Positions 51,288-55,766 are shown, counted from the stretch's first letter. The stretch: 60,018 nt of DNA from an uncultured Verrucomicrobiota bacterium (GCA_903825435.1 CAIKAP010000117.1:1-60018), one strand, 5' to 3'. The notes: a model not told the origin generated them from the sequence alone. A program made the numbers and translations.

Positions 51288-52365
51288 GCCGCAGGAGTTC
51301 CTTCTCGAACAGGGCGCTGTCCATCGGCAGCTCCACCGTCTGTTCCTGAAGCGAGGAGAGTAACATCGCGTTGGCGAGTTCGACCGAGCGGATCCCCTCA
51401 GAGGCAGGCGCAATCAATGGCGAGCCATCGAGGATCGCGTCCACGAAGTTGCGCACAATCGCCATGTGTTGGCCGCCGATGTTTTGAACCGGAATGACGG
51501 TTGTCTGTGTTGGCGGCGCGGCAAACAGTTCCTTGGCCGTGCGGCTGAACTCGGAGGCGGGCACTTCGTTGCGCGTGAAAGTGAGTATGCCGTTCTCGAA
51601 AACGAACCGGCCATTTTCGCCGGCGATTTCGAGACGGTTAGTGCCGGGGGCTTCGCCGGTGGAGGCGATGAATGTGGCGGTCAGGTTGTTGTCGTAGTCG
51701 AGGTAGGCGGTGACTTCGTCCTCGACTTCGATGTGGTGGTATTTGCCGAAGTGACAGAAGGCGCGGATGCGGCGGGGCATACCGATGAGCCATGGAAGAA
51801 GGTCGAGTTGGTGCGGGCACTGGTTCAGCAGGACGCCGCCGCCTTCGCCCGACCATGTGCCGCGCCATGGGGCGCTGGCGTAGTAGGCGGCGGGCCGAAA
51901 CCAATTGGTGATGGTCCAGTTGAGACGGCGGACTTCACCTAGTTCGCCGTCGTGAATCATCTGGCGGATTTTTAGGAAGACCGGGTCGGTCCGCATCATG
52001 AACATTGCGGCAAAGACTTGGCGCAGGTCGGTGTGTGCGGCTATTAGGCGTTCGGCGTCGGCTTTGTGGACGGAGATCGGTTTGTCCACAAGGACGTGGA
52101 GGCCGTTACGCAGTGCGTCGGCGCCAATGGTGGTGTGGGAGTAGTGCGGTGTCGCAATGAGAACCGCGTCAACCGCGCCGGAGCGAATAAGGTCTTCGCT
52201 GCGGGTGAAGGCGCGCGCTTGCGGAAACTTCGCCAGCTGCACGGGGTTACGCGCACAGACGGCGGCCAGCTTACAACGCGGAACAACTCCCGCCGCAATC
52301 TGTTCGGCGTAGCGCGCGCCCATGGCGCCTATGCCGATGCTGCCGAGTCGAATCGTCGCCGTCAT
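51262..52365 (-). CDS. Gfo/Idh/MocA-family oxidoreductase
   Basis: IGIGAMG, DAVLIATPHYSH, HVLVDKP, GGGVLLNQCPHQLD, IEVEDEVTA. Confidence 0.93.
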   Translation of the reverse strand: MTATIRLGSIGIGAMGARYAEQIAAGVVPRCKLAAVCARNPVQLAKFPQARAFTRSEDLIRSGAVDAVLIATPHYSHTTIGADALRNGLHVLVDKPISVHKADAERLIAAHTDLRQVFAAMFMMRTDPVFLKIRQMIHDGELGEVRRLNWTITNWFRPAAYYASAPWRGTWSGEGGGVLLNQCPHQLDLLPWLIGMPRRIRAFCHFGKYHHIEVEDEVTAYLDYDNNLTATFIASTGEAPGTNRLEIAGENGRFVFENGILTFTRNEVPASEFSRTAKELFAAPPTQTTVIPVQNIGGQHMAIVRNFVDAILDGSPLIAPASEGIRSVELANAMLLSSLQEQTVELPMDSALFEKELLRLIARHGGV

Positions 52366-52519
52366 TCGAATAGCAAGACGGCAAGGAACGCCACCAACGA
52401 GTTCTTGTTCTTACTGACGTTCAACGTGGTCTAGCCCTCCTGAGGTTGCTGCGCTCCATCCTTACCACGTCCAACGCCGATGCCAACTCCAAATTACTCA
52501 TGGATCTTGCAATTGACGA

Positions 52520-52924
52520 ATTGCCGACGAGATCGAGAAGATTCTCCGACACCTCGGCCCGTAGGAAGATGCACCACCGGACACACGAGCCCCGCCGCGA
52601 CCAATTGAACGCGAGTTCACCTACGAGCCGTTTTACGATGACTTCCCAACCGGCTCACGCGACTGGTATGCGGACTGATTCACCGATCGCCATCGGTGGC
52701 AATGGAATCGGTATCACTTCGAGCGCGCCAACCGTACAATCGCGAACAGAAAGAGGCATGGAATGCGGCACGGAGACAAACACGGAAGATGGCGGAAGGC
52801 AAATGAAGGCCGACCGAACTAACCGTCGGGCATTTTCGGATGCTAAGCTACGGACAGGGCGGATCAGGACGGCCAGTTTCGTTCCCCCTTTTAACCCCCT
52901 CCGCAAAACCGAATTCCTATCAGT
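52520..52924 (+). mobile_element. Remnant of an IS91-family (rolling-circle) element: transposase C-terminal tail plus putative ori end
   Basis: 52520..52678 reads EIEKILRHLGP*EDAPPDTRAPPRPIEREFTYEPFYDDFP; ILRHLG...RAPP resembles IS91-type transposase C-termini; followed about 210 bp later by the repeat ending GAATTCCTATCA. Confidence 0.65.
52891..52924 (+). repeat. 34-bp ori-like direct repeat R1
   Basis: TTAACCCCCTCCGCAAAACCGAATTCCTATCAGT. Confidence 0.92.
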
Positions 52925-53028
52925 AACTCGCGGCAGCGGTTGAGGCGGCACGGCGCGCATGATGCTGGATTCGCTTGTTGTTTGTTGGTTGACAATCCGT
53001 CTCATTCGGTGTTTTTAACCACAACAAT

Positions 53029-53760
53029 ATGAAAAAACTCCTCTTGAGTTCATTGGTGTTGACTTGCCTGTGCGGCGTGACGTGGGCGCAGCAGCCGGTT
53101 GCTGACTTAAAACTGGATTTCAACAGGTTGAAATCGTGGGACACGAAGCGCTACGAGATGCTCGTGCCGTATTCAGTCACGACCGCTCTAGGTGGCCAGA
53201 CTAACAAGCAGGTTAACATCAACCACGCAGGCATCTCCACCATGGCAACTGAAGTGACCGGCGATTCGCTGATTCTGACCGAAACGATGGAGCGTCAGAA
53301 GATGAAAATGGTTTACCATTGTCGGAAAGACAACGGGTTGGCACTTCTGAAATCAGATATGACCATGGGCAACCAGACCGCCATCGCCGAATTCAAGGAC
53401 GGGAAAATGTCGGTTACGGCGAACGGCAAGGTACATGAGATGCCATTCCCGGAAGATACGTTGGTTGAGCCGGCCTTTCTGCGGTTGGTTACGCTATTGC
53501 CGCGTGAGAAGGGTGGCCGTTTTTCGTTTAAGCACTGGAGTGAAATGCGAGGGGGGCCACCCTCGGATTCCGTGCCGATGACGAAAGCGCCGCTGGTCAT
53601 CGTTTGCGAAGGCGAAGATACGATCAAGCTGGCCGGTAAGGATGTGCGCGGCACAAAATACAATCTCGGCAATCGTTATCTGGCTTGGGTTCGTGACGAC
53701 GGTACGCTGCTGCGATACGAATTGCCCGGCCGCACCATCTTGGAACTCGTCGCGAACTGA
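53029..53760 (+). CDS. Secreted hypothetical protein (beta-rich)
   Basis: MKKLLLSSLVLTCLCGVTWA signal peptide, 243-aa ORF. Confidence 0.8.
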   Translation: MKKLLLSSLVLTCLCGVTWAQQPVADLKLDFNRLKSWDTKRYEMLVPYSVTTALGGQTNKQVNINHAGISTMATEVTGDSLILTETMERQKMKMVYHCRKDNGLALLKSDMTMGNQTAIAEFKDGKMSVTANGKVHEMPFPEDTLVEPAFLRLVTLLPREKGGRFSFKHWSEMRGGPPSDSVPMTKAPLVIVCEGEDTIKLAGKDVRGTKYNLGNRYLAWVRDDGTLLRYELPGRTILELVAN

Positions 53761-53764
53761 CCGG

Positions 53765-53960
53765 CTACTTCACCTCGAAAAACTTTTCCTTCTTCGCGCC
53801 GCAGACATCGCAGTGATCGGGTTGATCGCCAATGTGGGTGTGCCCGCAGATTGAACAGACCCAAATGGACGCGCCAGCGAGATCTTTTCTGGCTTTAATC
53901 TGCGCCAACGCCCGTGAATAGAGGCCGTGGTGGATTTCCTCGACAGCCAACGTATTCTTA
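53765..53960 (-). pseudogene. Rubrerythrin C-terminal fragment truncated at repeat R2
   Basis: KNTLAVEEIHHGLY (ExxH) plus rubredoxin-like CSICGH...CDVCGA; N-terminal helices missing. Confidence 0.82.
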
Positions 53961-53992
53961 ACCCCCCTCCGCAAAACTGAATTCCTATCAGT
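53958..53992 (+). repeat. 35-bp ori-like direct repeat R2
   Basis: TTAACCCCCCTCCGCAAAACTGAATTCCTATCAGT. Confidence 0.92.
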
Positions 53993-54044
53993 TCAGTACG
54001 GCCACCACGGAAACATAATTGCATTCGTTCCCAAGATTTTGCTC

Positions 54045-54488
54045 TTACGGCACAGCATGGGGGTTGTTAATGTCGCACCCCTTGCTCTTAAGTTCTTCCT
54101 GTGCTGTTTGCCGATCCACTAAGACCGGATGAATGCCTTTCCCGAACGCTGAGTCATCGACATCGAATCTGATGAATACTTGCTGATCCTTTTTAAGCGT
54201 GAACTCTATTTTCTGGTTCCCGCCGCCAACGCGGACAATGTGCCGACCCACACAAACATCCTTGCAGTAATACCGGTCTGGTCTAATCTGGCCGCTCCAT
54301 CTGCCATCGAGGATCCAGTCCTGCCACAAACCGGGAGTACTGCGAGATGCGGTCCGATAAACGTACACTCGCCCGGTATCGGATGAAGAAGTGGAAGGTT
54401 GGTAGTTCTTCGGATCATCAACAGTGATGCATCCTGCCAAGAAAACGAGCCCGATCAGGGCATTGCAATGTTTTTGACACGAAATCAT
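54045..54488 (-). CDS. Lipoprotein, DUF2846-like
   Basis: FLAGC lipobox, GRVYVYR, GRHIVRV, QQVFIR; GAGGTAAGGA upstream. Confidence 0.75.
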   Translation of the reverse strand: MISCQKHCNALIGLVFLAGCITVDDPKNYQPSTSSSDTGRVYVYRTASRSTPGLWQDWILDGRWSGQIRPDRYYCKDVCVGRHIVRVGGGNQKIEFTLKKDQQVFIRFDVDDSAFGKGIHPVLVDRQTAQEELKSKGCDINNPHAVP

Positions 54489-54575
54489 TCCTTACCTCAC
54501 TTCAGTAGTTGCTGTACCATTTGCATGCGTTCTAACATTGTTGTTCAATGAGACTCGTGGGCGGCATCCTGAGAT

Positions 54576-54609
54576 TTAACCCCCTTCGCAAAACCGAATT
54601 CCTATCAGT
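54576..54609 (+). repeat. 34-bp ori-like direct repeat R3
   Basis: TTAACCCCCTTCGCAAAACCGAATTCCTATCAGT. Confidence 0.92.
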
Positions 54610-54611
54610 TT

Positions 54612-55766
54612 TCACGGATAACGGCGCGCTTGGAGTATCTCCAGCGAGGTCAGGCTGTACGCGGTGCAGAGAACGGGGTCGTTCTCCCACCAACGGTTGT
54701 TCTCGTTCTGCCAGAAACCGTCAGACTTCTGGAGCGAGACGAACTTCTTCATCAACTCATACCGCCAGTCGTGTTTCTTCCCCTTGGCATCGGTAAAGGT
54801 GTCATCGCCGTACACCGTCAACGACTTGGTGACAGTGTGGTAGTAGTAATATAGTCCCTGAGGTCCCATGCCGGGATTATCGTCGAGCGTGTAGTTGCGC
54901 TGGAGCCATTCCACCGCCGCTTTCACGCGCGGGTCGTCCTTCTTCAATTCCGCGTAGATGTAGCTCTTCAACCCCGCGTAGCTCATCGAGCCGTAGCTGC
55001 GCAACGGCGTCTTCTCGTCCGACGGCGGTGCCTCGTCGGCAAAACTCATCCCCGGCATGTACACGAACCCGCCAGCGTCGGCTTCGCGGACGTTCTTGGC
55101 CCACGGCTGGTCGTTGCTGGCAGGAAGGTTCTGGCAACGCTGAAGGAACTGGACGGCCTTGCTCCAATGCAACCGCGACCCGGTGTGCGGCGAGTCATCG
55201 CCAGCACGAGTCTCCAGCGACTCCGTCAGTCGGATCGCTTCCAGCGCCCACTGCGTGTTCGACAAATCCGGCCGCTCCCGTTTACCGTAGCCGATGCCGC
55301 CGTAGCTCGTGTCGGATTCCTTGACGTTCTCGCCCGCGTCAAACTGCGAGTCCAACAGGAACCGTCGGGCGCGCTTGATCGTGTCGGTCAGCTCCGTCCT
55401 GCCGGTGGCCAGCAACGCCATCGTACAGATCGCCGTTGAGTAATTCGGATACTTGTCGGTCTCACCGCCGCCGTAGATGGCGCCGTTGGACTTGACGTTG
55501 CTGAGCAGGAACTTCACCGCCCGGTCCATCGCGCCCTGCGGCGGTTTCTCGCTGCGCGCTAGCGCCGTCAACGCCAGCCCCGTAATCGCCGGATGATGCC
55601 GCCACGAGCCGTCGGCCTCCTGCTGCTTGAGCATCCAGGCTGTGCCGCGTTCCTGCGCGCGCGCCACCTCCTGCAACAGTGAGATGTCCACCTGGCTCGG
55701 CAATTCTGCCGCCGCCGCGACACCGACGAACAGCGTGACCACAAGGCTGGCAATGAGGAGGCGCAT
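54612..55766 (-). CDS. Secreted prenyltransferase/squalene-cyclase (QW) repeat protein
   Basis: Signal peptide, WMLKQQEADGSW, PDLSNTQWA, FLQRCQN, YGSMSYAGLKS, LQKSDGFW. Confidence 0.88.
   Translation of the reverse strand: MRLLIASLVVTLFVGVAAAAELPSQVDISLLQEVARAQERGTAWMLKQQEADGSWRHHPAITGLALTALARSEKPPQGAMDRAVKFLLSNVKSNGAIYGGGETDKYPNYSTAICTMALLATGRTELTDTIKRARRFLLDSQFDAGENVKESDTSYGGIGYGKRERPDLSNTQWALEAIRLTESLETRAGDDSPHTGSRLHWSKAVQFLQRCQNLPASNDQPWAKNVREADAGGFVYMPGMSFADEAPPSDEKTPLRSYGSMSYAGLKSYIYAELKKDDPRVKAAVEWLQRNYTLDDNPGMGPQGLYYYYHTVTKSLTVYGDDTFTDAKGKKHDWRYELMKKFVSLQKSDGFWQNENNRWWENDPVLCTAYSLTSLEILQARRYP

Follow-up and report, generated by a model that had tools for sequence, protein, structure and literature searches.

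How do blocks of unrelated DNA come to stand one behind another between short repeats that all point the same way? The question is raised by positions 52512-54611 of a 60,018-nucleotide (nt) stretch from an uncultured Verrucomicrobiota bacterium (GCA_903825435.1, CAIKAP010000117.1:1-60018), in which three direct repeats, R1, R2 and R3, separate two blocks of genes. The whole stretch, at its full length, is referred to here as the window; it is contig C117 of genome bin G000 (3.43 Mb in 242 contigs), the public runs that hold it are freshwater and lake metagenomes, and a scan of genome contigs gave a Verrucomicrobiae bin as its sole match. An earlier reading of the sequence alone, the original prediction, had taken the repeats for IS91-type ends, that is, for the origin (ori) side of a rolling-circle insertion sequence (IS), and had proposed that minimal ori units were joined to new DNA by a second site-specific step, giving an integron-like gene-capture array mobilized in trans. 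As judged from sequence, R1 to R3 are copies of the minimal origin-side (oriIS) end of a Verrucomicrobia IS91-family rolling-circle transposon, and such ends also stand free, with a fixed left edge, in one-directional rows. That these rows form a gene-cassette system is suggested here only tentatively, and the evidence for and against it is weighed below.

The 34-mer has exactly three matches in the window, all on the plus strand, and none in 100 dinucleotide-preserving shuffles. Scored without gaps, the matches are 52891-52924 (no mismatch), 53959-53992 (three mismatches) and 54576-54609 (one mismatch); with a gap allowed, R2 extends over 53958-53992, and its only differences from R1 are an additional C and a C>T change. 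The sequence common to the three copies is limited to 34-36 nt (blastn), so that R2 and R3 share with R1 the short repeat alone, as had been predicted. R1 (TTAAC...CCTATCAGT, 52891-52924, plus strand) is the right end of a truncated and decayed IS91-family element (52512-52890, plus strand) that has lost its 5' part and consists of a remnant of the transposase C-terminal tail and a noncoding 3' tail leading into the ori end. The remnant (52532-52675) comprises 48 residues with an in-frame stop and is 57% identical to residues 435-482, the C terminus, of an intact transposase on contig C206 (tblastn), which bears out the claim that R1 follows a decayed IS91-type tail. R1 ends about 250 nt behind this remnant, and upstream of it stands the conserved IS tail, a run of C and then TTTTAAC, as on contigs C70, C72 and C59. 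The decayed copies at C72 and C70 are 79-80% identical to the window's decayed element (blastn), and its tail can be aligned with 11 other copies.

Cargo block 1 (52925-53957, 1033 nt), whose first bases are GTAA if the unit end is read as CCTATCA, holds a plus-strand open reading frame (ORF) of 243 amino acids (aa) at 53029-53760 with a signal-peptide-like start and no Pfam family, and a minus-strand C-terminal fragment of rubrerythrin (PF21349, E value of 5.6e-10; ORF 53765-53974). The rubrerythrin-derived codons start immediately behind the TTAA of R2 (53958-53992, plus strand), a bare unit that is followed by GTTC on the same reading of its end. Between R2 and R3 lies cargo block 2 (53993-54575, 583 nt) with a minus-strand lipoprotein-type ORF of 147 aa (54045-54488), which has an LAGC lipobox and a weak match to DUF2846 (E value of 1.5e-6, below the curated cutoff). 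R3 (54576-54609, plus strand; one C>T relative to R1) is likewise bare and is the last unit of the row. At the junction with the chromosome (54608-54614), GTTT is a target-type tetranucleotide if the element end is CCTATCA, and a stop codon follows directly: that of the minus-strand gene 54612-55766, which begins at 54612, two bases beyond the end of R3. This gene is kept in three same-genus genomes at 83-86% DNA identity. The two unrelated blocks, the rubrerythrin gene cut at the TTAA of R2 and the position of R3 next to a chromosomal stop codon were thus all as originally described. Over 52300-54800, an Rfam scan (E values up to 1) returned only a chance microRNA match far below threshold, and a promoter and terminator scan gave nothing above shuffles.

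A row of this kind could be an assembly artefact in which unrelated contigs were joined at a short repeat, and units at C59 and C72 do match R1 over 44-47 nt without a difference. Contigs of four public runs, built with k = 31, were compared with the window. R2 is bridged by contigs of runs X3, X4 and X7 and R3 by contigs of runs X3, X5 and X7, in each case without differences and across two studies. None of the contigs listed bridges R1, and those of X3, X4 and X5 break inside it, because contigs built at k = 31 break within the repeat. Against an artefact, independent metagenome contigs and other genomes repeat the layout of tail copy, cargo and bare unit. Misassembly, which the original prediction had itself raised, therefore fails as an explanation at R2 and R3, and at R1 the join stays unbridged. 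The window row is probably not a misassembly, and we give that explanation almost no credence.

The identity of the repeat is indicated by an intact sister element. The only intact IS91-family transposase gene of the genome lies at C206:33491-34936, and its product carries the domains Zn_Tnp_IS91 (PF14319, E value of 3.2e-18) and Y2_Tnp (PF04986, E value of 3.5e-20) and is 25-26% identical to the annotated transposases of ISCR1 and ISVsa3 over 93-95% of the query. The search for an intact element with a Y2/HUH transposase that had been recommended at the outset was in this way successful, the element belonging to a sister subfamily with a 56-nt unit. That unit begins 230 nt past the stop codon and ends 286 nt past it. 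Its termini are those of the window 34-mer, TAACCCCC on the left and TTCCTATCAGT on the right, and the middle alone differs. A TTCCTAT motif is also present at the oriIS of ISCR1, about 230 nt past the stop codon, and at the end of a relative element from Trichlorobacter. The flanks fit as well. From G000, its relatives and metagenome contigs we compiled 53 units with distinct flanks and counted the bases after CCTATCA, although the nick could also be at CAG|T or CAGT|. The tetranucleotide behind CCTATCA begins with GT in 46 of the 53 units and with TT in the other 7; GTTC is the commonest (14/53), and GTAA is found in 8/53. None of the 53 units has a repeat of the flank on its left side. Excerpts of PMC13181058 give the IS91-family target as a tetranucleotide adjoining oriIS with T at position 2. 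Because the linkage to a transposase, the TTCCTAT motif and the target rule all fit, we read the 34-mer as an oriIS end of the IS91 family, and the transposase domains, the ori end and the target rule agree in pointing to membership in that family, as had been proposed.

Several features of the ori ends and tails were recorded along the way. Reiterated TCAGT or TTCAGT pentamers are often found behind ori ends (three to four at C59:5931-5955; also C70:2395-2418, C72:4579-4590 and 53993-53997 in the window), and TCAG, seen in 10/53 units, is the commonest 4-mer of the flank behind the ori end. On L026 and L034, two metagenome contigs, the end of the unit is followed by incomplete copies of its last 11-13 nt. 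The element tails (window 52700-52890 together with L085, L082, L010, L023, L029, L013, L015-L017, L086 and L026) have two conserved features directed outward through the ori end, a TTGACT-17-TACAAT motif that resembles a promoter and about 40 nt reading GAAATGAGG...GGAGACAGATTCGGAGGA; two indels among the copies are multiples of three. A consensus RNA fold of 12 element tails contained no pairs and gave no sign of structured RNA. The left (ter) end of the intact element is placed near C206:33452 by comparison of just two independent copies (L037 and L056), with a possible stem around GGTTCC at that position.

What sets these ends apart is that many of them have no element attached. Copies attached to an element have 160-290 nt of upstream tail in common, whereas bare copies have nothing in common to the left of TAAC. 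The edge is sharp: TAAC stands at the left of all 35 bare units, drawn from several genomes, and is preceded by T in 26 of them, so that the edges vary by 0-2 T. Bare units with a fixed TTAAC edge are thus real and numerous, the left junction is as constant as the tabulation of flanks had been meant to show, and the competing scenario of variable left boundaries fails. A DDE transposon or miniature inverted-repeat transposable element (MITE) with duplication of a TTAA target, also named at the outset as a competing scenario, was rejected, since the full-length units of a contig are all on one strand and the right flank is TAAC in just 2 of the 53 units.

The same sharp edge at TTAA could be taken as the mark of the second step of the original prediction, in which a site-specific recombinase would cut and join at TTAA (GTTAA on the other strand) and so link new DNA to ori units in the way that an integron integrase acts on attC. 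Matches to Phage_integrase (PF00589) speak against it, for none of the 19 is on C117, C206, C220, C28, C72, C59 or C70, and the gene upstream of the C206 transposase gene is a chromosomal gene common to the same-genus sister species G002, not a recombinase. The units also lack an attC-like hairpin and match nothing in Rfam, and the edge wobbles. The second step accordingly found no support, and we consider it very unlikely. Direct comparison with attC sites led to their rejection: the context of the 34-mer folds no better than shuffles (z scores of +1.1 and +1.6), that of the 56-nt unit reaches z scores of only -1.9 and -2.4 with short local stems, and the bases behind the unit do not fit the attC box TTRRRY. 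In the single-strand folds of both R2 and R3, an inner stretch, AAAAC(C/T)GAA, may pair with the flank, a pairing to which no weight is given. Repetitive extragenic palindromic (REP) sequences or their paired form, REPINs, moved by a RAYT (a Y1 HUH enzyme), are likewise a poor match, the units being nonpalindromic, arranged as direct and not inverted doublets, and equal to the end of a Y2 IS91-type element; this was judged without a search for RAYT genes.

The units run in one direction. Every multiunit contig of G000 carries its full-length units on one strand (C117, 3; C28, 3; C72, 3; C70, 2; C59, 2; C206, 3; C220, 9), and no inverted full-length unit was found on any contig or locus read in detail. 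An element or a tail is the upstream member in seven of the rows read (C117, C206, C72, G002:C129, G029:C17, L026 and L034); on C59 and C70 a degenerate unit precedes the tail copy, and the rows on C220, C28 and L018 contain no tail copy. The 56-nt unit is present in 12 identical same-strand copies, one of which closes the intact C206 element, with two more behind it on C206 and nine on C220. The nine C220 units lie within 9.5 kb, the last two in direct tandem (C220:9405-9516), and a direct unit-unit tandem is also seen at the metagenome locus L025. Twelve identical copies beside an intact transposase gene argue for recent and repeated production of units.

These counts bear on an explanation in which the units are passive scars: successive full elements would have entered at one GT-type target, their bodies would have been deleted, and the unrelated DNA would have come by other routes, the units never having moved blocks. 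R1, as part of a truncated and decayed element, is what such a history would leave, as are the diverged units of the window and the decayed tails of different lengths (160-290 nt) elsewhere. Independent deletions would not, however, share TTAAC within two bases in all 35 bare units of several genomes, and the 12 identical copies by the intact gene argue for recent production and not for remnants. We consider passive scars distinctly unlikely as a general account. For the window itself the system looks extinct, because its units have diverged and its transposase has decayed, and the row at 52512-54611 is probably an old, inactive example of the process.

Some further observations concern the ends of these rows. 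Outside the window, the 12 units of 56 nt are found within C206:35167-38358 and C220:1-10718. C220 begins on the left with a carA-like fragment; since its identity to the other carA-like stretch of the genome (on C64) is just 76%, the row probably continues past the contig. At C220:10578-10718, about 140 nt are 99-100% identical to 25 other places, nearly all of them contig ends of G000, and are probably the end of an abundant repeat that breaks the assembly, another insertion sequence. The only inverted piece found is a 20-nt inverted copy of the right end of the unit at C206:35929-35948, before the second C206 unit, which could form a 20-bp hairpin with the unit's right end and which provides the stop codon of a truncated cupin-like ORF.

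The DNA between units, as far as sequence can tell, looks heterogeneous and foreign. The blocks between the 56-nt units of C220 range in GC content from 0.28 to 0.62, and among the unrelated genes and fragments in blocks between 56-nt units are those for an exosortase, an FkbM methyltransferase, a PIG-L deacetylase, a gluconolactonase (a fragment), an M48 peptidase and a PEMT-like protein (a low-GC gene). Blocks often consist of gene fragments or of several genes, in either direction. Genes may be cut at the left edge of a unit with the other half absent on the right, as for the rubrerythrin of the window and the start of a cupin gene on C206; the DUF4160-like start in G002 is cut in the same way, as read from its translation without a family search. 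Paralogues of the cargo elsewhere in the genome are just 67-80% identical, and the closest rubrerythrin-like stretch (on C39) matches block 1 with only 71% identity over 111 nt. Neither window block has a DNA match in any of 44 other genomes of the family. No cargo block was found at two sites among the blocks of C117, C206, C220, C72 and C28.

Relatives show that rows are a general feature of this transposon clade and that their contents differ. A gapped pattern covering both unit subfamilies was present in 11/401 genomes of the class, including 9/44 of the same family; across relatives the termini of the unit are conserved and the middles variable, and further rows were found in G029:C17, G031 and G002, as well as on metagenome contigs. 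With the exact 24-nt pattern, one other species-level genome and 18 metagenome loci were recovered, several of the latter belonging to the same population as the G000 bin, and a 23-nt pattern gave only single copies, mostly linked to tails, in 60 relatives. The most informative comparison is with G002, in which an intact element occupies the site orthologous to that on C206 (left flank 80-84% identical) and heads a row of three units whose cargo differs from that of C206. G234 has an insert made up of a unit, an aldo/keto-reductase gene and another unit that is degenerate; in G216 the corresponding flanks are contiguous, an empty site for the G234 insert. The empty-site check called for at the outset thus gave one positive case, and none that was clean for the row of the window. 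At C28:9013, same-genus sequence is identical up to the TT that starts the unit and then diverges; the flanks of the C28 row map to different contigs in relatives, and the locus is informative solely for this exact break at the unit edge.

Other features of these sites in relatives may be mentioned. A separate repeat of about 120-140 nt, with 75-81% identity and many copies in several genomes of one genus, and places in G302, G216, G033 and others, lies just left of the G234 unit (L018 5047-5167) and at the G216 empty site. The slot of the window row (52340-54613) is a variable region in the genus, between a GFO/IDH/MocA oxidoreductase gene and a prenyltransferase-like gene; in G001 it holds two paralogous secreted proteins of 285 aa (L078 4858-6661) and in G003 two paralogous proteins of 210 aa on the other strand (L079 5429-6887). 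The gene on the left flank of the window row was not found within the 7.9 kb of G002 examined. In three species of one sister genus (L015, L016 and L017, from G032, G025 and G033), a tail and ori end without transposase stand upstream of the same gene, with 77-87% identity including the flanks; because this insertion is orthologous in three species, it is old and has been kept.

The closed plasmid pIAE1 of Trichlorobacter lovleyi (NZ_CP058410.1) carries a related element. Its IS91-type transposase is 42% identical over 91% of the query, and its element end, AAAGCAAATTCCTAT, resembles the right part of the 56-nt unit; the flanks of its ori ends are TCCT, TGAC or CCCC. Its 18 ori ends, spread over 90 kb (about 162-251 kb; loci L129-L146), are all on the same strand. 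Directly behind some of the full ends there are tandem truncated fragments of the ori (13, 22, 28 and 37 nt), an indication that truncated units are made by the rolling-circle enzyme itself. Unlike the units described here, these mini-fragments vary in length (13-37 nt) and stay beside their parent, and most of the ends belong to full elements. No cargo block closed by bare units was seen in the pIAE1 stretches read.

A mechanism that could account for the rows is the following. In rolling-circle systems, a round both begins and finishes at the nick site. A matching transposase, produced elsewhere, would nick the right end of a unit, peel off one strand and stop at the next nick site, which could be a neighboring unit or a chance GT-type site; since the same nick site starts and ends a round, the next unit would be a ready terminator. 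The peeled strand would be closed into a circle, which would reinsert at a GTNN-type target, the best being the one already behind a resident ori end, favored because it has already proven cleavable. Repeated use of one target would lead to rows that run in one direction and have the transposon, or what is left of it, as their upstream member; direct tandems of units display just this arrangement of reinsertion beside an ori end. A unit with nothing attached would be the smallest nick-to-nick segment, and a bare unit landing in or beside a foreign gene, as with rubrerythrin, would cut the gene, after which later read-through would take the DNA to its left as new cargo. Read-through transposition, according to excerpts of PMC13181058, amounts to 1-14% in the IS91 family and to about half of the events for IS91 without Orf121. 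The TTAAC edge would most simply have been inherited from one founder minicopy that has since been excised from nick to nick; a founder that passes its edge to its descendants would explain the fixed edge without a second enzyme. Alternatively, the edge could reflect a preferred stop in a motif of C-run, TTAA and C-run.

That each segment of cargo plus unit is moved from nick to nick in trans and inserted beside resident ori ends is, on the sequence evidence, a proposition for which we see the chances as evenly balanced. What the sequences themselves show is the anatomy of the rows, the census of copies, an intact sister element, cargo that differs at one orthologous site, and a single empty site. 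The fuller reading, in which an HUH transposase runs a gene-cassette system whose ori unit of 33-57 nt serves as both start and stop signal, each cargo plus unit can move by itself as a single-strand circle, new circles land at resident ends, and rows lengthen at a single site, with turnover from one sister species to another, is more tentative, and we would put it somewhat below an even chance. Of the integron-like array mobilized in trans that had been envisaged, the rows and their cargo hold, the second step does not, and mobilization in trans keeps the conditional standing given here.

Several points weigh against both the movement of cargo and the cassette reading. At C28:6432-9016 the block between units is 80% identical to the same-genus genome G001; some blocks between units are thus plainly native DNA, and at C28 the unit may simply have landed in the chromosome. 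The TTAAC edge has no likeness to the true left (ter) end of the intact element, and for the abutment of cargo on this edge the ideas of a founder copy and of an internal stop are both guesses. The 34-mer subfamily is represented in this assembly by decayed transposase pieces only (C117 and C72), with no intact gene, and since its units also differ from one another by one to several changes, the window row may never move again. There is no clean empty site for the window row, its slot holding other genes in G001 and G003. The unbridged join at R1 belongs here too. Neither joints at unit borders, nor circle junctions, nor variants lacking a block were seen in the contigs of the four runs, which drop rare forms, so that these missing joints weigh neither way. 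Finally, most of the arrays come from metagenome bins, and the identical 56-nt repeats could have let the assembler misorder the blocks of C220.

The native block at C28 is also an argument for regarding the bare units as dispersed mini-elements comparable to MITEs or REP sequences, that is, as pieces of 33-57 nt that hop nearby in one orientation owing to a strand bias and move no cargo. What looks like cargo would be the DNA in which they had landed, and later rearrangements between units would explain the broken synteny, which stops exactly at the left edge of a unit. Direct unit-unit tandems agree with a unit that can stand alone, and the 18 one-strand ends over 90 kb of the Trichlorobacter element did not need cassettes. 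Landing alone does not explain genes that are cut at the left edge without their other half on the right, blocks of such different GC content inside one 9.5-kb row, cargo missing from 44 related genomes, the orthologous element of G002 with its different cargo, or the gene and two units of G234 that were inserted together relative to G216. Mini-elements of this kind are accordingly an unlikely explanation of the rows as a whole, though one that retains some weight.

The reading of the rows as cargo closed by movable ori units also has to be set against known systems. As in IS91, IS801 and IS1294, the transposase here is a Y2 HUH enzyme with a zinc-binding N-terminal domain and the ori end is downstream of the gene; as in the IS91 family generally, insertion is beside a tetranucleotide with T at position 2, most commonly GTTC, without target duplication. 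One-ended (read-through) transposition that carries adjacent DNA is a known property of the family, as stated in the portion of PMC13181058 consulted. Unlike in that family, the ori end occurs here as many bare units of 33-57 nt with a fixed left edge, in rows with unrelated cargo. The ISCR elements ISCR1 and ISCR2/ISVsa3 have a transposase of the same family and an oriIS about 230 nt behind the gene with TTCCTAT, as here. The promoter-like TTGACT-17-TACAAT motif of the tails recalls the outward promoters of ISCR1. To our knowledge, the variable region in ISCR contexts is not closed by a further minimal ori unit, and we know of no report of rows of many short ISCR units. Variable acquired genes on the oriIS side of ISCR1, and outward promoters in the oriIS region, are described in PMC6218425.

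Integrons and CALINs (clusters of attC sites lacking integron integrases) resemble these rows in having short conserved sites, in one direction, between unrelated and often promoterless or partial genes. In integrons as here, the cargo differs between close relatives at an anchored site and the mobilizing gene is at the upstream end. The array contigs described here, unlike integrons, lack a tyrosine recombinase, their units, unlike attC sites, are not imperfect palindromes, and the chemistry would be single-strand nicking by an HUH enzyme; unlike in integrons, the blocks are often gene fragments or several genes in either direction. Helitrons share an HUH-type rolling-circle enzyme and many nonautonomous copies, but they are eukaryotic, have a Rep-helicase fusion, tie capture to the terminating 3' hairpin end and form no ordered rows at one site. 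Capture of gene fragments by Helitrons via bypassed or newly formed ends is described in the abstract of PMC4778049. Among known phenomena, the nearest are one-ended transposition, as in IS91 and IS1294, the oriIS side of ISCR1 with the variable genes that it bears, and truncated ori-end copies. No published account of free-standing, fixed-edge minimal ori units in rows was found in the full-text literature searched, with subscription journals and ISfinder/TnPedia outside the search. A free-standing minimal ori unit with a fixed edge, closing successive unrelated blocks in ordered rows, may be an undescribed arrangement, with its absence from the literature a weak indication of novelty.

The movement of resistance and virulence genes is attributed to IS91 and ISCR elements; how these elements pick up genes, and why the genes stand on the ori side, is a matter of continuing debate. 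A clade whose ori end has become a tiny free-standing unit that closes foreign blocks offers a natural experiment on gene pick-up by these elements. If the reading proposed here is correct, it would offer a testable route by which ISCR-type elements gain genes on the ori side, and it would give bacteria a second route to integron-like rows of cassettes, one with an unrelated mechanism. The rows are located in abundant uncultured freshwater Verrucomicrobia, and in the annotation of such genomes they flag accessory DNA and breaks of synteny that gene callers miss.

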